Numbered from the stretch's first letter, positions 2,954 to 42,428 are shown. The stretch: DNA of 64,000 nucleotides from Patescibacteria group bacterium (GCA_041665845.1 JBAYIC010000008.1:1335-65334); one strand, 5' to 3'. Notes: generated from the sequence alone by a model not told the origin. Made by a program: numbers and translations.

Positions 2954-5900
2954 CTAAACAATTATTTCTGAGCCAGCGACTTTAATATTTGAATTAAATT
3001 TTTCCTTTAATTCATTTCTTAAGGCTTCGTTATTTGAGACTCTAAAAGCTGTTTTAATAATTTTAAATTTTTCGTCAGCAATGATGCGAAAAAAAACCTC
3101 CTCTTCTCCGGGAAAAATTGAAAATATTTGTTTTAATTCATTTAAATCGTTGGTCGATAAATCTTTCAAAAAAACTAATAACAACGGGTTAATCGACGGT
3201 AACGATTGTTTTAGCCCTGGCTTAACAATATCGGCCGGTGCAATATTGGCTTTGTTTGGTTTAGGAAAATTACTATTACCAAAGGAGCGACTGCGAATAG
3301 GCGCCGGAGATTCAAGCATTAGACGTTTAAAATCATCGACCGATTTTTGTGGAGTCGCTATGTCTAAAAGCATTACTCGATTAGCTAAAATCTTTAAATC
3401 GCTATCCTTTTCCGAAGCTTTCCCTTCTACGATAATTGTTCTTCCTTCTTGCCATAACTCTGTAGTTTCTTTATAAAGTCGGGGGAAAATTAAAAGCTCA
3501 GTTGAAGCAACCGCGTCTTCAAGCTTCACAAAAATCATTGATTCCCCTTTTCTAGTTATTATTTTTTTTATTGTTGCAATTACACCAGCGGTAATTATCC
3601 GATCATCGCCCTTGTGTCCGGCTAAACTAATAATTGGAACGATATAGCCAAGAACATACGGCTTAAAATAGTTAAAAGGATGCTCACTAACATAAAGTCC
3701 AAGCAATTCTTTTTCCCAAGCTAATTTTTCGTTTTGGTCGGCATCAGGGAAATCTTTTAAAACTGGCCGGCTTTTATCTTCAGGTTTAACATCACCAAAT
3801 AAACTTTCTTGACGACTATCTTTATTTTTTGCTTCTTCTTTATTAAAATTTAAAAACTTTTCCATGTTTGCCAATAAAAAACCACGCTCACCGAAACTAG
3901 TCATGGCGCCGCTCTTTATCAAACTCTCTAAGGATTTTTTATTTAAATCACGATCAGTAACTCTCTCTAAAAGGTTAAAAATATCTTGATAGGCTCCATT
4001 TTTCTTACGTTCTTTAATCAAAGTATCAACAATATGCTCACCTACGTTTTTTATAGCTTTAAGCCCAAAACGAACAGTATCAACTTTTTCATTTTTATCG
4101 ACTATTTTATTTTCTTTAGTTCCAGCAGTTACGACTGTAAAAGTACCAAATGATTCATTAACATCGGGCGCCATAATTTTTATCCCCATATTGCGGCATT
4201 CTTCAATTTCAATCGCAATTCTATCAGAATCGCCCTGATCAGAAGTTAAAAGCGCCGCCATAAATTCAACTGGCCAATGTGCTTTTAGATAAGCAGTTTG
4301 ATAACCGATCATCGCATAACAGGCCGCGTGACTACGATTAAAGCCATACCCGGCAAACGGTTCAATAAAAGAATAAACCTTTTCCGCTAACTCTTTATAG
4401 ACGCCATTTTTAACACAACCTTCAACAAACTTTTCTTTTTGTTCGGCCATTAGAGAAGCAATTTTCTTTCCCATCGCTCGCCGCAAAACATCTGCTTGAC
4501 CCATAGTAAAACCCGCTAAATCACGAGCGATTTGCATAACTTGTTCTTGATAAATAGCAACACCATAAGTATTTTTTAAAATACTTTCAAGCTTTGGATG
4601 CAAATAAGCAACTTTTTTTATTTTATGTTTACCGGCGATATAATCAGGAATCCATTCCATCGGCCCCGGGCGATATAAAGCAACCATCGCAATTATATCC
4701 TCAAAAATAGTTGGCTTAAGTTCACGCAAGTAACGTTTCATGCCCGCTGATTCAAATTGAAAAACACCTGTAGTTTCTCCGGCTTGAAATAATTTATAAG
4801 TTTTTTCATCGCCTAAAGGAATTTGATCAATATCAATTTCTAAACCTCTAGTATTTTTAATAATTTTTAAAGCCGATTCAATAATAGTTAAATTTTTAAG
4901 GCCCAAAAAATCCATTTTTAGTAAGCCCAAGTCTTCAATTGGATGAAGCGAATACTGTGAGATAACGCTTTCATCGGCTGATGAAGCGTGTTGAATGGGA
5001 ACATATTCCGTTAAAGGTTGATCAGTTATTAAAACACCGCAAGCATGAGTTGAGGCATGACGAGCAACGCCTTCAAGTCTTTTAGCATAATCTAAAATCC
5101 TTTTAGCCGCCGCCTCATTATTATACATTTCTCTAAGTTCGGGAACGGTTTTAATGGCTTCCTCAAGTTTAGTAAACATCGGAATGCTTTTGGAAATTTT
5201 ATCGCAGTATTCATAAGGCTCATCTAGCACCCGACCAACATCACGTACCGCCGCCCGAGCGGCCATCGTCCCAAAGGTAATAATTTGAGCAACATGGTCT
5301 TGGCCATATTTTTCGCCGACATAATTTAAAACTTCACCGCGTCTTATATCAGCGAAGTCCATATCAATATCAGGCATAGAAATTCTATCCGGATTTAGAA
5401 ATCTTTCAAAAAGTAGATTATATTCAAGCGGATCAAGATTGGTAATTCCTGTTAAATAGCAAACCAAGGAACCGGCTGCGCTTCCTCTTCCTGGACCAAC
5501 AACAATCTTATTATCCTTAGCCCAATTGATAAAATCAGCAACAATCAAGAAATAAGCCGGCCAACCCATTTTAGCAATAACTGATAATTCATAATCAAGC
5601 CGTTCCTGGACTTCTTTTAATTCAGAGTCGGGCTTCCCGGGATAACGTTTTAAAATTCCTTTTTCACACCATTCCTTTAAATAAGAGTTACCATCATACC
5701 CAGCTGGTACTTCAAAATGGGGTAATTGAATTTGACCAAGTTCAATTTCAACATTACACATCTCGGCAATTTTCAAAGTATTTTCAATGGCTTCCGGGAT
5801 ATGTTTAAAGGCGGCAATCATTTCCGCATTAGAACGCATGGAATAATCGCCATGCCCAAGCATTTTCATTCTATCGGTATCGGTTATTTTCTTTTTATTT

Positions 5901-8724: not shown

Positions 8725-8808
8725 GCCGCGGTGGCGGAATTGGTAGACGCGCACGACTCAAACTCGTGTGGGGGAAACTTCATGAGGGTTCGATTCCCTC
8801 TCGCGGCA
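8725..8808 (+). tRNA. tRNA-Leu (anticodon CAA), CCA not encoded
   Basis: Acceptor GCCGCGG/TCGCGGC with discriminator A. D-arm GCGGAATTGGTAGACGC. Anticodon arm CACGA-CTCAAAC-TCGTG. Long variable arm. T-arm GAGGG-TTCGATT-CCCTC. Confidence 0.9.
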
Positions 8809-14311: not shown

Positions 14312-14728
14312 TGTTATCAGGGCAGCTGTAAGCCGGATTCTGTTTTAAGCGATCATTTATCTAGGCTTATTATTACTAATAAGCTCAAGCGAGCCACTTT
14401 TCTTTCCTTCTAACCTAAGTCAAAATGAAAGTTTGCTCTTGCTTCTGATAGGGTTTACCACGCTATCTCCGTCACCGGAGAGCGAAACCGGTAGCCTCTT
14501 GCGAGACACCCAGCTCCTTTTCACCTTTTTTCCTGTTAAAAATTGCAGGATTAGTATTGTCTCTGTGGCACTTTCCCTTGACCAAATCGACTTTAACCGA
14601 AATGGCCCGGTGGGTATTACCCACTATCATTAAACCTCAAAAATATTGAGATTTTAGCGAAGTCCGGACTTTCCTCCCCTCTTAAGCTAAACCTAAGAAG
14701 AGTAATCGCCCGCTCACCCTGATAACTC
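14312..14728 (-). ncRNA. rnpB: RNase P RNA, bacterial type A (ends approximate)
   Basis: Minus-sense GAGGGGAGGAAAGTCCGGACTTCGC (the universal GAGGAAAGUCCGG, plus strand ~14665-14690) and ACAGAATCCGGCTTACAGCTGCC near the 3' end (plus strand ~14322-14345). P1 pairing is GTTATCAGGG (5') with CCCTGATAAC (3'). Internal GTGCCACAGAGACAA matches the conserved J11/12 region. Confidence 0.9.
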
Positions 14729-22401: not shown

Positions 22402-23451
22402 ATGAAAAAGAATCGCATTTTTTTCGTATTTTCGACCGCTATGATGGCCGTATGTTTTTTTATCCTGGCTCTTGCCATGGACGGACAGGCACAAAGTTCT
22501 AAGTTCCTCGATACCTATAACAAGGTACTGGAACTGAACAAGGACCGATTTGCAAACTTAAACGATCTCCCAATTGGAGCTCTGGTACTTTTCCCATCAC
22601 GATTCGGTGATAACAGCCTGGAGGCCTGGAAAACAGTTTCCTCCGATAACATGGGAGGTAAACATGACTGTATCTGGTATATGACCGGACGTTATATGGA
22701 CGCTGTTGCTGTTCATAGCCAAGCCGAAGCTACTCCTCCGACTCCATCAGACCAGCAAGCTAAACAGCAATTACCTAATCCGCCCGCCGAAAAACAACCG
22801 CTTTGGTGGTGGAGCTTGATTGCTCCTGCTTTGTGTATTATCTTTCTGCTTTGGTATTGGTTTTGGTCTAACCAAAAAAAGAACCCGAATCATTACCCTG
22901 CGGTCGGAGAAAATTTGGAAAGAATGTCTAAAACAGAAGCAATGATGAGCTTAAAAAACTTTTTGGGTGAAGGAGATATTCTTCTTAATATCCATCAGGG
23001 AAAATTGAAGCGGCGTTTTGGTCCCAGAAAACTTGCTTGCCGAATGATGTTCGGAGACGGGTTTTATCGCAATGTTTGGATGAAACAGAACGATGGGATT
23101 ACGGTTATGCTGATTAAAAACGGCGAAGTCATCAGAAAAGTGCACCGCAGAAGTACAGGATCTAATGGATTCTTCACTGGAACCCTAACCGTTCCTAACG
23201 GTTGGTACATTGAGTACTTTGAGTTTGTTCAGGTAATTTTTGAGAAAATCACCGCCGAAAGTGATGCAAGTCAGTTAACTGAACAACCTAAAAAAGAACA
23301 GGCTAATGAAATCTGTTTGGATTTAAACACGATCATGGAAGCAGCTAAAGATTTTCGCAAGATAAAAATTGTGAAAAATCAAAAAGGAAAAACGAAAGTT
23401 GAAATCTCAAAATTCATCGGAGACAAAAAACCAAAAAACAAAAAACACTGA
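22402..23451 (+). CDS. unknown bitopic membrane protein, paralog A (signal peptide, LysM-like segment, TM, C-terminal domain, Lys-rich tail)
   Basis: 349 aa. N-terminal hydrophobic signal. LELNKDRFANLNDLPIGALVLFPS. GKHDCIWYMTGRY. TM LWWWSLIAPALCIIFLLWYWFW. NPNHYPAVGENL. RMMFGDGFYRNVWM. KKPKNKKH tail. Confidence 0.8.
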   Translation: MKKNRIFFVFSTAMMAVCFFILALAMDGQAQSSKFLDTYNKVLELNKDRFANLNDLPIGALVLFPSRFGDNSLEAWKTVSSDNMGGKHDCIWYMTGRYMDAVAVHSQAEATPPTPSDQQAKQQLPNPPAEKQPLWWWSLIAPALCIIFLLWYWFWSNQKKNPNHYPAVGENLERMSKTEAMMSLKNFLGEGDILLNIHQGKLKRRFGPRKLACRMMFGDGFYRNVWMKQNDGITVMLIKNGEVIRKVHRRSTGSNGFFTGTLTVPNGWYIEYFEFVQVIFEKITAESDASQLTEQPKKEQANEICLDLNTIMEAAKDFRKIKIVKNQKGKTKVEISKFIGDKKPKNKKH

Positions 23452-23453
23452 AA

Positions 23454-24500
23454 ATGAAAAAAAACTTTTTGTTGATTATCGTTGTGATTCTTGTTCTGGC
23501 TTTAAACAGTCAGGCTAGAAGTCCGAGACCGCGGATGACTCTCGATGAGGAATTTCAAAGAACCTATCAAAGGGTTCTTGAAATGAATCAAACAAGATTC
23601 AAAGATCTCAAGAGAATTCCAATCGGAGAAACTATTCTCGTTCCCTCACGCTGGGATGAGCGGGATATAGAAATGTTCGAGTTACGACCACCAACCAACG
23701 GTCGACACGATTGCATCTATCTGCTTGTTCACCGATATGTTTATGGTGAGGCAAGTATAGAGGATTCTGGCCCAGCTAGTGGAAATATATCAAACACGAG
23801 CGTTCCCGCAATCACAACAACACCAGAAGAATCTCCTAAAAAATCCAACGGCTTATGGTGGTTAGCTATTCTCCCAATTATTCCGATAACAATAGGCGGA
23901 AGAAAATGGTGGGAAAACAGACACAATCCGGATAGTTATCCTCCGGTTGGTAAGAACTTGGACTCCTTGGAACCGGCCGCAGTTGTGGCTGAAGTTCAAA
24001 GAGTATTCGAAGTGAACGGCAATAAAGTTCTCGAAGTTAAACGCGGAACTTTATGTCGCTTAAGCGGACCTAATAAAATCAAAGTCAGGATGAAATTCGG
24101 TGATAATAAAGACAGGAATGTCTGGATACTTCCGAATGAATCAGTCTGTAAGATTAAAGTCCGAAACATTTTCGGACAAGAGTCTTACGAATATTGCCGT
24201 AGTGCTTGCACTAATGGCATGATATTAGACCATTTCGAACTTCCCAAAGGCTGGGAGTTCGTTATCAACCGGGCAACCTTAACAACAGTGCCCGAAATTA
24301 CTACCGCCACAGTTATCCCAACTGTAATACCAACTGCAGTGGAAAAAACTGATGTTATTCTCCCGTTGGTTGAAAACCAAAGAAGGCCACCGCGGTGTAC
24401 AAAAAATAAGCACCGCTGTAAGACCTGTAAAAAATTCAACCCCAAATATGGGAAGAAAAAAAGGATCTGCGGCTTCAAAGCAAAGCCGCGAAAATTGTAA
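23454..24500 (+). CDS. unknown bitopic membrane protein, paralog B, with Cys-rich basic C-terminal tail
   Basis: 348 aa. Colinear with paralog A (LEMNQTRFKDLKRIPIGETILVPS, GRHDCIYLLVHRY, LWWLAILPIIPITIGG, NPDSYPPVGKNL, RMKFGDNKDRNVWI). Tail is RRPPRCTKNKHRCKTCKKFNPKYGKKKRICGFKAKPRKL. Starts 2 nt after the stop of paralog A. Confidence 0.8.
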   Translation: MKKNFLLIIVVILVLALNSQARSPRPRMTLDEEFQRTYQRVLEMNQTRFKDLKRIPIGETILVPSRWDERDIEMFELRPPTNGRHDCIYLLVHRYVYGEASIEDSGPASGNISNTSVPAITTTPEESPKKSNGLWWLAILPIIPITIGGRKWWENRHNPDSYPPVGKNLDSLEPAAVVAEVQRVFEVNGNKVLEVKRGTLCRLSGPNKIKVRMKFGDNKDRNVWILPNESVCKIKVRNIFGQESYEYCRSACTNGMILDHFELPKGWEFVINRATLTTVPEITTATVIPTVIPTAVEKTDVILPLVENQRRPPRCTKNKHRCKTCKKFNPKYGKKKRICGFKAKPRKL

Positions 24501-38808: not shown

Positions 38809-38867
38809 ACAAATATTATCCCTACTTTATTATATTTTTATTATACATCAGGCAAAACCTTATGCCA

Positions 38868-38901
38868 ACAAAAAAGCGGCCTCCGAACAAACGAAGACCG
38901 C
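38868..38901 (-). terminator. strand-specific terminator of the 39991->38929 ORFan unit
   Basis: Minus-sense GCGGTCTTCG-tttgtt-CGGAGGCCGC (two G:U pairs, which are C:A mismatches on the plus strand), followed by TTTTTTGTT. Confidence 0.65.
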
Positions 38902-38928
38902 TATCATATTTTAGCAGCTAATTTCATA

Positions 38929-39648
38929 TCATTTCATTATATTGTTAATGATTTCAGCTACCTCATCTTTATTGGCTTGATCAGTAATCTGCACAAAGAC
39001 AATCCGTGGGTAAATTTTCCCATTATTTTCTTTTACCCGAATAGATTGCACACAATAACTTCCGTCTGTGACCTGAACGTAGGCCTCTTTAATTGGACAA
39101 AATCCATCACGTGAATGCTTCCCAAAAACTGCCTTACGCAATTCGCCGATATTGCCATCGGTAAAATAATTAAAGCAACGGCTACCAGCCTTGGAATGTT
39201 TGCATAAATTACCACCGTCAGGAATATTAAGATTGATTTCATCAACAACCTGCAAGAGTTGCGACGTAAGTTCGTGCGACCATAAAGCCGTTAAAATTGG
39301 ATTCGTATTATTGCTCATTAAATGCCAAACTCCACGTTTAGCACTCCCAAAATTAAGGGCCCAAAGACCTTTTCCTGGCCTTAGTAACAAAGCCCTTCTA
39401 CCTCTGGTTCTTTTCTTTAATTGAGCAATCGAGAGATTGAACGTTTCGTCATCAAGACTCATCAATCCAACCATCGATTGGCGATTAACAAAGGCTCTTT
39501 TTACAAAGTAGTTAATACCCGCAATAGTGAGCTTAGTCTCGGGCTCAATTTGCTGATATAACCTACCATCTGGTTCTCTAAGTACGAAAGCCTTGCCTTC
39601 ATAATTACCGTAAACATAAATCCTGCTCATGGGATTAATATTTAGCAA
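38929..39648 (-). CDS. ORFan protein with a four-Cys cluster
   Basis: 239 aa (alternative start MSRIYVYG at 39630). Cys pattern CKHSKAGSRC...FC...YC. Motif GKGLWALNFG. No family recognised. Confidence 0.65.
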   Translation of the reverse strand: MLNINPMSRIYVYGNYEGKAFVLREPDGRLYQQIEPETKLTIAGINYFVKRAFVNRQSMVGLMSLDDETFNLSIAQLKKRTRGRRALLLRPGKGLWALNFGSAKRGVWHLMSNNTNPILTALWSHELTSQLLQVVDEINLNIPDGGNLCKHSKAGSRCFNYFTDGNIGELRKAVFGKHSRDGFCPIKEAYVQVTDGSYCVQSIRVKENNGKIYPRIVFVQITDQANKDEVAEIINNIMK

Positions 39649-39991
39649 TTACAATGGCCTGGTGATACACAAACCCCTCACTTACCCGTTTTAGGGATCT
39701 ACTTTCATTCCCTAACATGAATATAGCAAATTGGGTTTTGAGGCGTTTTTGGGCTTCTTCTTTTGTAAGCACAGTGTATATGCTTGGATAGTTAATATCA
39801 TTACAAAAGCTGAACCAGTGTTCTTCGACGATACACGTATCGCCGATGGAGAGATTTGGGCGGTTTTCGATGTTTTTGATGTTTTGGATAGTATCGCTAC
39901 TATTTAATTTTACTACATCGATTTTTTCCGGAATGCAACTAAATAAGCATTCCAATAACAGTACGGTAAAAAGGATGATTTTTGTTTTCAT
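39635..39991 (-). CDS. ORFan putative lipoprotein
   Basis: 118 aa. MKTKIILFTVLLLECLFSC has a lipobox-like LFSC. Overlaps the next gene by 14 nt. Confidence 0.6.
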   Translation of the reverse strand: MKTKIILFTVLLLECLFSCIPEKIDVVKLNSSDTIQNIKNIENRPNLSIGDTCIVEEHWFSFCNDINYPSIYTVLTKEEAQKRLKTQFAIFMLGNESRSLKRVSEGFVYHQAIVIAKY

Positions 39992-40045
39992 TGATTAAAT
40001 TTATAATATTCAGAAACTAATTATTAACGTACAATGCAATAAAAA

Positions 40046-40074
40046 AATTTATCATGAAGCTATATTTTTGTCAA
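40046..40074 (-). promoter_or_regulatory. consensus extended -10 promoter (ORFan cassette type)
   Basis: Gene-sense TTGACAAAAATATAGCTTCATGATAAATT: -35 TTGACA, 17-nt spacer ending in TGa, -10 TAAATT. Confidence 0.65.
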
Positions 40075-40092: not shown

Positions 40093-40120
40093 TTGCAAAG
40101 AATTTAATATTTGCTAAAAT
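40093..40120 (+). promoter_or_regulatory. extended -10 promoter driving the leader or sRNA
   Basis: TTGCAA (40093-40098), 16-nt spacer ending TGc, TAAAAT (40115-40120). Confidence 0.55.
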
Positions 40121-40126
40121 GATTTC

Positions 40127-40293
40127 ATGCTTAATTTATCAAACAAAAACTACCGCAACAATAACTTTAGTTACTGGATGTTTACCCGGTTAGTTTTTAT
40201 TGATAAAAAAGCGAATTGCTAATAGTAGAATACTGAAAGCAAATTAAATATCAATAAATTCCGACCGGATTCATAATCCGGTCTTTGTTTTTT
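40127..40293 (+). ncRNA. candidate ~165-nt structured leader (attenuator or riboswitch-like) or small RNA
   Basis: Bounded by the promoter at 40093-40120 and the terminator at 40263-40293. Contains a long imperfect hairpin (TTTATTGATA 40196-40205 / TATCAATAAA 40249-40258, with an inner AATTGCT/AGCAAATT pairing). No room for a separate promoter before the CDS at 40352. Confidence 0.4.
40263..40293 (+). terminator. rho-independent terminator inside the 5' region of the 40352 gene
   Basis: GACCGGATT-cat-AATCCGGTC followed by TTTGTTTTTT. Confidence 0.7.
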
Positions 40294-40351: not shown

Positions 40352-41176
40352 ATGAATCCAAAAAGTAGTAATCAGTTCGTAAGTTCTCATTCAATTTTAA
40401 AATTAAATGAATTGAATGCCGCCCAGTGTAAAATATTAATAAATAAATTGAACCTGGTTAAAAATCAAGATTCCTTTGTTGAGTTCGATTGTGTTCCCAA
40501 CGGAAGTTTAAATCTTTTTCGTTATGGCGATGGCCTCAAATCCGCCAAGATAACTAAGAATCTTGTTAATTTGTTATTATTTGATGACATCAAAAATCCT
40601 GGATTGAACGAAGAAATCGGAGAGATAACTAGTTCTTTTTTAGGAAAAGATTCCTTCTGGTTAGAAAGAAAAATTATTTCTACTAAAAATTCTGGACTAG
40701 CAATTGATTTTCGCACTGGAGTAAAGCTTGGTCTTTGGAAATTAATTACTTCTGAGTCTTACTCCGATGATTACTTGAAGGAATTAGGTTGGGGAAAATC
40801 TTTTTGCGTAAAACCAGGGGAGCTTAATTGGGAACAACCTTTTTGTGTAAAAAATGAAGAAGGTTTAACTAAAATATGGCATCCTAATTGGAGAACGCTG
40901 GGCTATAAGAATGGTTTCTCCACTAAAGAGTCCATTACGAAATTTATTGAAAAGACTCCAACTTACTTACAAAAGTTCTATGCACCCTTTCCGGCGAGCG
41001 ATAAAGAACCAACTCGCAAAATGTATTATCGTTTAATATTCTTTGTTGAGGCTGGCGCAAAGAAAATAGATTTTTGCGGTGGGCTTTGGATCAGTAATTT
41101 TGGATTTAAAATTTTCCAAGACGAAAATTCAATCGTTGGATTTATATCTCCTTTAACAACAGGAGTATTTTTCTAA
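40352..41176 (+). CDS. ORFan protein
   Basis: The track ORF starts at TTG 40328. I prefer ATG 40352 (MNPKSSNQF...). 274 aa with no recognised domain. The C-terminal motif GGLWISNFG resembles GKGLWALNFG of the 38929 gene. Confidence 0.65.
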   Translation: MNPKSSNQFVSSHSILKLNELNAAQCKILINKLNLVKNQDSFVEFDCVPNGSLNLFRYGDGLKSAKITKNLVNLLLFDDIKNPGLNEEIGEITSSFLGKDSFWLERKIISTKNSGLAIDFRTGVKLGLWKLITSESYSDDYLKELGWGKSFCVKPGELNWEQPFCVKNEEGLTKIWHPNWRTLGYKNGFSTKESITKFIEKTPTYLQKFYAPFPASDKEPTRKMYYRLIFFVEAGAKKIDFCGGLWISNFGFKIFQDENSIVGFISPLTTGVFF

Positions 41177-41197: not shown

Positions 41198-41230
41198 AAG
41201 CGCTCACACCAAGTTGAGCGCTTCTTTTTT
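41198..41230 (+). terminator. rho-independent terminator
   Basis: AAGCGCTCA-caccaagt-TGAGCGCTT followed by CTTTTTT. Confidence 0.75.
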
Positions 41231-41261
41231 AATAAAATAGCCGCCAGATTCCTCTGACGGC
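41231..41261 (-). terminator. strand-specific terminator of the 42428->41303 unit
   Basis: Minus-sense GCCGTCAGA-ggaa-TCTGGCGGC (one G:U pair, a C:A mismatch on the plus strand), followed by TATTTTATT. Confidence 0.6.
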
Positions 41262-41302
41262 CATAAAATAAGTTTAAAATTGATTTGATGTCAAGTTCAG
41301 CA

Positions 41303-41701
41303 TTAAGAGAAGAAAGCTGGTATATCATCAGGAATTTTTGGATTCCGATTGAAATTGTAATCAGCTATTCTTTTTAAGAGTATCGGGTCATTCTTAAATT
41401 CTTTTCTAAGAATCAAGTAGGCCTGATATCCCTTCTCTAAAATACTTTTCGGATAGAAATGCCCTTCGATTAAATCATTTTCATCAACTGGACAACGCTT
41501 CATTCCGTATTGATAATGTACCGCCGATAATTCTTCAGCGAGTATCTGATTAACCACTCTTAATCTTTCGTAATTCCTTGCTCGCCCAGGATGATAATTA
41601 TAAAAATTTAGAAAAAAATTAGCGAAGGCGAATTGATTATTTTTTATTTCTATAAACTCCTCAAACAAAAGAGGAATCTCATTAAAGTTTTTTCCATTCA
41701 T
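41303..41701 (-). CDS. ORFan protein
   Basis: 132 aa, cytoplasmic-looking, no recognised domain. Confidence 0.6.
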   Translation of the reverse strand: MNGKNFNEIPLLFEEFIEIKNNQFAFANFFLNFYNYHPGRARNYERLRVVNQILAEELSAVHYQYGMKRCPVDENDLIEGHFYPKSILEKGYQAYLILRKEFKNDPILLKRIADYNFNRNPKIPDDIPAFFS

Positions 41702-41714
41702 AACTAATAGTGTT

Positions 41715-42428
41715 TCATTTAGAAATTCCGAAATGTTTCAAATCCTTGGAAGATTTCTCTACCAAGTTATATGAGAAATTTTTTCTCTCATATTGCAGTT
41801 CGGGGAACAAGATAATTTTTGTCATAATATTTCCTCCGGCATCAATCAATAAATTAGCTGAAATATTATAATCACGAAGCGAAAAGACTCTTATATCCTC
41901 TACTTCCCAGCTCTTAGGAAGAAAACTCCAAACAAGTTCGCCGATTAAAGCTATCTCTTCGGATTGTTTTTTCCAATCGATTTTTTTGTCCTGATTGTTA
42001 TTTTTTACAATCATTCTACTCAAGCTTATCCAAAGCATAATAAATTTATCACGCTTTAAACTGGATAATTCTTCATTAAATAAACAACAAGATAAATCAT
42101 TCGCTAATTTTACAATAGATTCTTTGTCTTCTTTTCCTAAAAGACCAAAATAGCGAGTAGTATCCGAAGATTGGCGGAAATTTTCTAATTCCATCACTAA
42201 AAAATAGCCTTCTGGCCTAGTGATTGATGGCTCAGCTTCTAAGAATTGTTGGTAACTAACCGTTTTTATAAGGTTTCTTTCTAAAAAATTAGCCTTATAG
42301 GTATCAGGCTTGGATTTAATCCTTGCTAATTCCTGACCATGATCGGTTACAATTGCTAAGTAATCATAGGGCTCCTGAGTAAAAGCAACAAATGGAACAA
42401 ACAAAAACAAAAAAAAGATTTTTTTCAT
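41715..42428 (-). CDS. ORFan secreted protein
   Basis: 237 aa. Signal peptide MKKIFFLFLFVPFVAFTQEP. No recognised domain. Confidence 0.6.
   Translation of the reverse strand: MKKIFFLFLFVPFVAFTQEPYDYLAIVTDHGQELARIKSKPDTYKANFLERNLIKTVSYQQFLEAEPSITRPEGYFLVMELENFRQSSDTTRYFGLLGKEDKESIVKLANDLSCCLFNEELSSLKRDKFIMLWISLSRMIVKNNNQDKKIDWKKQSEEIALIGELVWSFLPKSWEVEDIRVFSLRDYNISANLLIDAGGNIMTKIILFPELQYERKNFSYNLVEKSSKDLKHFGISK

Follow-up and report, generated by a model that had tools for sequence, protein, structure and literature searches.

The window analysed here is the whole 64,000-nucleotide stretch of DNA, which comes from a Patescibacteria (CPR) genome. Its minus strand carries, between positions 38868 and 40074, a genuine two-gene operon encoding a small, predicted membrane-anchored lipoprotein (geneA) and a presumably cytoplasmic protein of a rare family (geneB). 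Judged by sequence comparison, this bicistronic operon is conserved across the clade of this Falkowbacteria-type Patescibacterium. The features of the locus are as follows.

40046..40074, minus strand: sigma-70-type promoter of geneA-geneB, predicted by promoter scan (-35 TTGACA at 40074..40069, 17-nt spacer)
40051..40046, minus strand: -10 hexamer of the geneA-geneB promoter, part of the extended -10 TGaTAAATT
39635..39991, minus strand: geneA, 118 aa, predicted SPII lipoprotein (ORF call)
38929..39630, minus strand: geneB, 233 aa from ATG 39630, without a signal peptide
39097..39204, minus strand: putative CHHC zinc site in geneB (C143 at 39204..39202, H145 at 39198..39196, H172 at 39117..39115, C178 at 39099..39097)
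38865..38902, minus strand: intrinsic terminator, AGCGGTCTTCG-TTTGTT-CGGAGGCCGCT then TTTTTTGTTGG (hairpin at 38902..38875)
38840..38868, minus strand: separate CorA promoter, TTGGCA-17-TATAAT (promoter scan, 11/12 matches)
40093..40293, plus strand: structured RNA candidate beside the operon and not part of it (promoter, ~165-nt transcript, terminator)
40093..40120, plus strand: divergent promoter TTGCAA-16-TGcTAAAAT, back-to-back with the geneA promoter
40263..40293, plus strand: terminator GACCGGATTCATAATCCGGTC and T-run of the RNA element, 58 nt upstream of the divergent gene ATG
40352..41176, plus strand: divergent gene, 274 aa (best start ATG 40352, not TTG 40328)

An ORF caller had begun geneB at TTG 39648, giving a 239-aa product. 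This longer form is an artefact. The N-terminus is M-S-R-I, from ATG 39630, in all orthologues and in the NCBI model, and so this ATG is almost certainly the true start of a 233-aa protein. It lies 4 nt past the geneA stop codon and the two genes abut. An earlier reading of the sequence had described two overlapping genes; both minus-strand reading frames are where it placed them, but the overlap disappears with the corrected start.

Promoter-like sites taken alone show no excess over chance in this region (14 observed, 14.4 expected from shuffles). Good evidence that the geneA promoter is real comes from the block 'TATTGACAaaaatata.ctt..TGATAAtTT', which is kept 5' of geneA in six of six independent related loci, where the flanking proteins are just 40-55% identical. 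At the other end of the operon, the terminator hairpin has 11 pairs, seven of them G-C and two G-U, and is followed by a T-run. It folds with -24.8 kcal/mol in the gene sense (z = -3.8) versus -10.3 kcal/mol in the antisense, because the two G-U pairs turn into A-C mismatches there. An equivalent hairpin and T-run lies 3' of geneB in all six related loci, and terminator-like sites are over-represented in the region (13 versus 2.6 expected). The CorA promoter, whose TTATAAT box relatives also keep, delimits the cassette on its lower side, and the terminator insulates geneA-geneB from the downstream CorA gene. The promoter, the terminator and the CorA promoter are all conserved in the six independent loci. 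By sequence, geneA-geneB is transcribed as an independent unit, from a promoter of its own to a rho-independent terminator. A discrete unit of this kind, with a TTGACA-N17-TAAATT promoter (the site at 40074..40046) preceded by an upstream TG and with a sense-specific terminator, is what had been proposed from the sequence alone, and both signals hold up.

Synteny of the operon

GeneB is 100% identical to NCBI WCT50_04125 (MAG: hypothetical protein, Patescibacteria group bacterium), and geneA to WCT50_04130; the window is part of a metagenome-assembled genome of low GC (35%). The nearest named relatives are Candidatus Falkowbacteria. Genomic contexts were taken from metagenomes and from GTDB species genomes, among which is a complete Falkowbacteria chromosome of 977 kb (CP066698.1). 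All the related Falkowbacteria-type genomes that were found have the cassette at one and the same place, flanked by the divergent 274-aa gene and CorA. The arrangement is the same in every context: the divergent gene (235-275 aa), an intergenic region of ~370 nt, the lipoprotein gene (109-118 aa), geneB and CorA, with a SAM-methyltransferase usually next. Synteny extends to seven or more related genomes, CP066698.1 among them. Far from being absent from close relatives, the cassette is present and syntenic in loci L001, L002, L005, L014, L016 and L024; three further loci only repeat these sequences, identically or nearly so (L013 that of L002, L017 that of L001 and L030 that of L014).

The pairing of geneA and geneB, their order and their 2-4-nt spacing are kept in six of seven genomes at protein identities of only 40-55%, the exception being L016, in which the two genes are 71 nt apart. 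Both are real genes under purifying selection that evolve faster than their housekeeping neighbour; dN/dS against the closest relative, L024, is 0.22 in geneA and 0.13 in geneB, compared with 0.02 in CorA, and the divergent gene has a value of 0.17.

The L016 locus differs in another respect. Its CorA is 90% identical to that of the window and its HD-domain neighbour 86%, whereas its geneB is only 41% identical. The L016 geneB (4412..5131) is closest to another subfamily, P0011 (63%), and the geneB tree disagrees with the CorA tree. In-situ replacement of geneB or fast, accelerated evolution could produce such a mismatch; the CorA grouping, for its part, finds no support in the methyltransferase gene.

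The two proteins

GeneA opens with MKTKIILFTVLLLECLFSC; its signal peptide is MKTKIILFTVLLLECLFS, and the lipobox-like L-F-S-C occupies codons 16-19 (39946..39935). As in Sec/SPII lipoproteins, a positively charged, basic n-region and a hydrophobic h-region (MKTK-IILFTVLLLECLFS) precede the cysteine, and these are conserved in seven orthologues of 40-85% identity. Cys19, the +1 position, is invariant in all seven CPR orthologues. The lipobox is L-L-S-C in five of the seven, L-F-S-C in the window and its closest relative, and F-F-G-C in L016, with positions -2 and -3 deviating in some copies. The orthologue consensus L-L-S-C fits the SPII lipobox [LVI][ASTVI][GAS]C, whereas the window copy has F at -2 and, unlike a typical SPII signal, an E in the h-region, where the closest relative has G. 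Taken together with the invariant cysteine, these features mean that geneA fits a predicted Sec/SPII lipoprotein, as had been suggested from its lipobox.

The mature geneA protein of ~100 aa has a second invariant cysteine, C53 (DTCIVE), and an invariant C-terminal K-Y. This mature domain resembles none of the known lipoprotein families, and searches of Pfam, PHROGs, NCBIfam, PADLOC and PDB returned nothing for geneA. No homologue outside the clade was found by sequence searches or in the neighbourhoods of distant geneB homologues.

A lipobox had been considered unexpected in a monoderm CPR bacterium. That expectation is mistaken, since lipoproteins are common in monoderms: monoderm Firmicutes, Actinobacteria and Mollicutes all make them in large numbers with Lgt and LspA. 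For Saccharibacteria, predictions of Sec/SPII signal peptides have been published (PMC7427843). The invariant lipobox cysteine in seven CPR orthologues adds small but direct evidence for lipoprotein processing in the clade. A motif scan of the 64-kb window, which is only part of the genome, gave no match for lgt or lspA.

GeneB belongs to a family that is undescribed and rare, and it is not lineage noise. Close homologues form seven clusters at 49-54% identity. When 1.84 billion cluster representatives were searched with a profile, 72 family clusters (defined at 50% identity) came out with E<1e-3, 42 of them with E<1e-10; a second database search gave 56 clusters. The family is spread over Patescibacteria, Clostridia (the named members are Clostridiales) and three prophage-like early regions. 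With about 70 clusters for geneB, and orthologues of both proteins in every related genome examined, the term ORFan that had been applied to the cassette no longer fits. The accompanying claim of no homology fails for raw sequence databases but holds for curated libraries, in which neither protein matches any family. Pfam, NCBIfam, PHROGs, PADLOC and the PDB sequences have no geneB match. Scans of the curated libraries with both proteins, their neighbours, distant family members and whole alignments found nothing significant, and PDB sequence searches with single sequences and profiles returned noise only.

In its orthologues, its purifying selection and its patchy occurrence across phyla and phage-like contigs, geneB resembles the Pfam-style DUF families of Patescibacteria and phages; it differs from them in that it still lies outside Pfam, NCBIfam, PHROGs and PADLOC. 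The invariant or near-invariant residues of the family are R3, Y10, L17, W90, A91, G100, H103 and D158, and its motif is GLWAxxxGSAxxGVxH. HNH, PD-(D/E)xK, 2OG-oxygenase and ADP-ribosyltransferase motifs were considered by eye and rejected: they agree neither with the spacing nor with the predicted secondary structure or the invariant positions, and HMM searches give no signal. The divergent gene and geneA were also considered as distant paralogues of geneB; hhalign shows neither to be one.

An AlphaFold model of geneB built from a 58-sequence alignment is confident (pLDDT 92, pTM 0.61) and supersedes an earlier, poor run with 8 sequences (pLDDT 52). The model has an N-terminal six-stranded beta domain (residues 1-60) and two short helices, followed by a larger, mixed, mostly beta C-terminal part with a helix at its end. 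A Foldseek comparison of the kind suggested in the sequence-only reading finds no fold match for the model in PDB or BFVD at E<=1e-3. The best matches are 8jou_B (the fiber-tail adaptor of phage GP4) and a minor tail protein of Mycobacterium phage DS6A, both small beta-sandwich phage tail proteins with which about 100 geneB residues align at a Foldseek probability of 0.91-0.99. The E-values (2e-2 and 5e-3), the target-normalised TM-scores (0.38-0.39) and the rmsd (~8 A) are however too poor, and so the matches fall below any threshold for fold assignment. The alignment spans less than half of geneB and none of its conserved motifs. The geneB family is rare, crosses phyla, occurs in phage-like contigs and combines a confident, unmatched model with a clear zinc-site signature; it could reasonably be entered in Pfam and taken up in structural or biochemical work.

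A metal site in geneB had been proposed from four cysteines. Such a site is plausible, but with different ligands: of the four cysteines only C143 and C178 are kept family-wide, and they are joined by H145 and H172. The pattern is C-x-H...H-x5-C. Its C, H, H and C occur together in 57 of 81 unique family members, and nearly all of the remaining 24 lack every one of the ligands. C143 and C178 are found in ~72% of members, always with H145 and a histidine 3-6 residues before C178 (H172 in the window). C152 occurs in 3/8, 3/34 and 3/58 sequences of three alignments, and C193, present in all eight close relatives, is found in only 10 of 58 sequences family-wide. This all-or-none pattern looks like a tetrahedral zinc site, and C143, H145, H172 and C178 probably form a putative structural zinc site. 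The site is lost wholesale in ~30% of members, in which H103 and D158 stay invariant, and this suggests a structural rather than a catalytic role.

Origin and possible function

The genomic contexts of nine distant geneB members are heterogeneous. Three of the nine resemble phage early regions and six, on Clostridia-type chromosomes, are small islands or isolated genes. In the phage-like contexts a cro-like HTH_26 gene lies one or two genes upstream of the geneB homologue, and other phage-like markers are pRha, KilAC-type ORF6N/C, HicA, an S24 repressor, SSB, YopX, MazG and DUF1599. CorA, a geneA-like lipoprotein and the divergent gene are near none of the nine members, and genes like the geneA, divergent and 41715..42428 genes do not accompany the distant homologues. 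A riboswitch upstream of the distant homologues was rejected, as Rfam gave only an unrelated glmS of a neighbouring gene.

The best explanation overall, which we favour with modest confidence, is a clade-conserved operon for an exported lipoprotein and a cytoplasmic geneB, possibly a phage-derived envelope or conflict module. GeneA (~10 kDa) would leave the cytoplasm through Sec, receive a lipid at Cys19 and stay tethered to the external side of the cell membrane. GeneB, a beta-rich protein of two domains, would stay in the cytoplasm; its structural zinc site would be dispensable, and its invariant polar cluster of R3, Y10, H103 and D158 probably forms a ligand-binding or catalytic site. The phage-like contexts, the small islands and the faster evolution than that of housekeeping neighbours lead to the guess, the weakest step of this scheme, that geneB was an accessory, originally phage-borne gene that became fixed in the clade together with a surface lipoprotein. 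At low confidence, its role might then be at the envelope or at a phage-host (or symbiont-host) or conflict interface, and not in core metabolism.

Several results run against the phage-derived part of this explanation. The family is absent from 50,697 sequenced phages (INPHARED) and from PLSDB plasmids by tblastn with four members, and pattern scans of IMG/VR found nothing. PADLOC and PHROGs have no match for geneA, geneB or the divergent gene, and HMMs of the PHROGs and PADLOC type are also silent on the distant geneB homologues. The loci of the CPR clade are without other phage genes nearby and the position of the cassette is fixed, which fits a lineage-specific housekeeping function too. 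The functional link between geneA and geneB comes only from tight co-transcription, because geneA does not accompany geneB outside the clade.

Prophage surface lipoproteins reportedly block superinfection, the examples being Ltp of phage TP-J34, Llp of T5, and Cor. GeneA resembles them, as a functional analogy only, in being a small membrane-anchored accessory lipoprotein with a phage link through the family of its partner. It differs in having no sequence similarity to them, a fixed chromosomal position and no surrounding prophage, and the phage-borne geneB homologues have no lipoprotein partner.

GeneA and geneB may instead be two functionally unrelated genes that share a promoter, geneA being one of numerous rapidly evolving surface proteins of CPR bacteria, for instance for host attachment, and geneB an independent cytoplasmic enzyme or binder. 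GeneA is without relatives outside the clade, geneB homologues elsewhere never stand beside a geneA-like gene, and the two products are predicted to be in different compartments; the 71-nt gap of L016 also fits such a loose association. We nevertheless regard it as doubtful, in view of the pairing, order and 2-4-nt spacing retained in six of seven genomes despite protein identities of 40-55%.

A more ambitious form of the favoured explanation is unlikely as a whole. According to it, geneB would be a new two-domain beta fold with an optional CHHC site and an invariant Tyr/His/Asp centre, shared by temperate phages of Clostridia and Patescibacteria and domesticated in Falkowbacteria with a surface lipoprotein as a fixed phage-exclusion or host-interaction module, and the adjoining RNA, tied to this locus as well, would stand for a class of cis-regulatory or small RNA that is itself new.

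Quite improbable is a lineage-specific housekeeping module for cation homeostasis, with geneB as a metal binder or sensor and geneA as an extracytoplasmic partner of the CorA Mg2+/Co2+ channel. It would account for the CorA adjacency conserved in all CPR loci, for the metal-type CHHC site of geneB and for the purifying selection on both genes. A strong terminator, itself conserved, however divides the cassette from CorA, which has a promoter of its own; none of the nine distant family members has CorA nearby, and the cassette evolves far faster than CorA. The loss of CHHC in ~30% of members while H103 and D158 are invariant makes the site look structural, which also goes against a metal sensor.

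The sequence-only reading had seen a recently acquired foreign ORFan island, inserted horizontally and without relatives. The composition of the locus bears on this in both directions. A codon-adaptation check gives geneA the lowest score of 56 window genes, 0.558 (mean 0.664, sd 0.047; z about -2.3), together with a high GC3, and finds geneB mildly atypical (z about -1.1), but the scores of several other window genes are similar to that of geneA. The 100-nt sample at 39101-39200 has the 43% GC reported for it. Cassette GC is 37.1% against a window mean of 35.4% (sd 3.3 over equal-sized windows, 29% of which are at least as GC-rich), inside the normal range of the window. Because of the synteny, low expression is a more likely cause of the low geneA and geneB codon scores than recent transfer. 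Despite these codon scores and the failure of either protein to match a curated family, a foreign island is very hard to credit when all related genomes found have these genes, with their promoter and terminator, at one position flanked by the divergent gene and CorA, and when geneB has about 70 family clusters. Conservation and synteny across the clade had themselves been named as the finding that would count against a foreign origin. Recent insertion is refuted by synteny; any acquisition would have to be ancient and date back to the origin of the clade.

The anatomy first read from the sequence is real and is strengthened by conservation, while its interpretation as ORFan, foreign, four-cysteine and carrying an odd lipobox is largely wrong. 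About half of CPR/Patescibacteria genes are hypothetical, and the cassette is a typical yet well-defined piece of this CPR dark matter. Its conserved promoter and terminator are usable examples of CPR transcription signals. The undescribed geneB family and the candidate RNA merit a database entry more than a headline, and current understanding is unchanged unless a function emerges.

Neighbouring RNA element and genes

The 360-nt intergenic region between geneA and the divergent gene has a nucleotide conservation far above that of the surrounding coding sequences. The RNA element within it has a conserved hairpin and a 10-bp long-range stem (TTTTTATTGAT/ATCAATAAA). The segment enclosed by the long-range stem is variable in sequence and apparently can still form hairpins. 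In an alignment of only six sequences, 96% of cells are paired (slid controls: 30-60%), and compensatory changes occur at four pairs. The element is in all six related loci and, in Rfam, 40093..40293 has no match. It is a candidate for a small RNA or for a terminator-type cis-regulatory leader of the 40352..41176 gene.

The product of the divergent gene is found in every relative at 43-55% identity, and at 84% in L024, with many invariant Trp, Gly and Cys positions; none of Pfam, PHROGs, NCBIfam, PADLOC and PDB contains a match to it. Two insertions of ~20 aa are present in the copies of the window and of L024. Two convergent terminator-like hairpins, at 41198..41223 on the plus strand and 41264..41237 on the minus strand, separate the divergent gene from a 132-aa gene at 41303..41701 (minus strand). 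A promoter-like TTGACA-18-TATTTT at 41294..41265 (minus strand) directly abuts the minus-strand hairpin.

None of the related loci has a counterpart of the 41303..41701 gene; the divergent gene of L016 directly adjoins the counterpart of the next gene, 41715..42428. On the loci compared, 41303..41701 is the only lineage-specific, truly ORFan-like gene of the neighbourhood. The 41715..42428 gene (minus strand) encodes a 237-aa protein that begins with a cleavable-looking signal peptide (MKKIFFLFLFVPFVAFTQE) and is kept in relatives at ~47% identity. Between this type of gene and the cassette, L001 and L002 have an inserted block of CSD, zf_Tbcl_2 and ABC-F genes, with a NUDIX gene in addition in L001, which shows local rearrangement.

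Elsewhere in the 64-kb window, Rfam gave only two matches at gathering level, a tRNA at 8725..8808 (plus strand) and a bacterial class A RNase P RNA at 14313..14722 (minus strand), which scores 178 bits. Two adjacent genes of ~349 aa at 22402..24500 (plus strand) have, after geneA, the most atypical codon usage and GC3 (CAI-like score 0.57, GC3 0.40-0.41). On composition, these genes are better candidates for foreign origin than the cassette.
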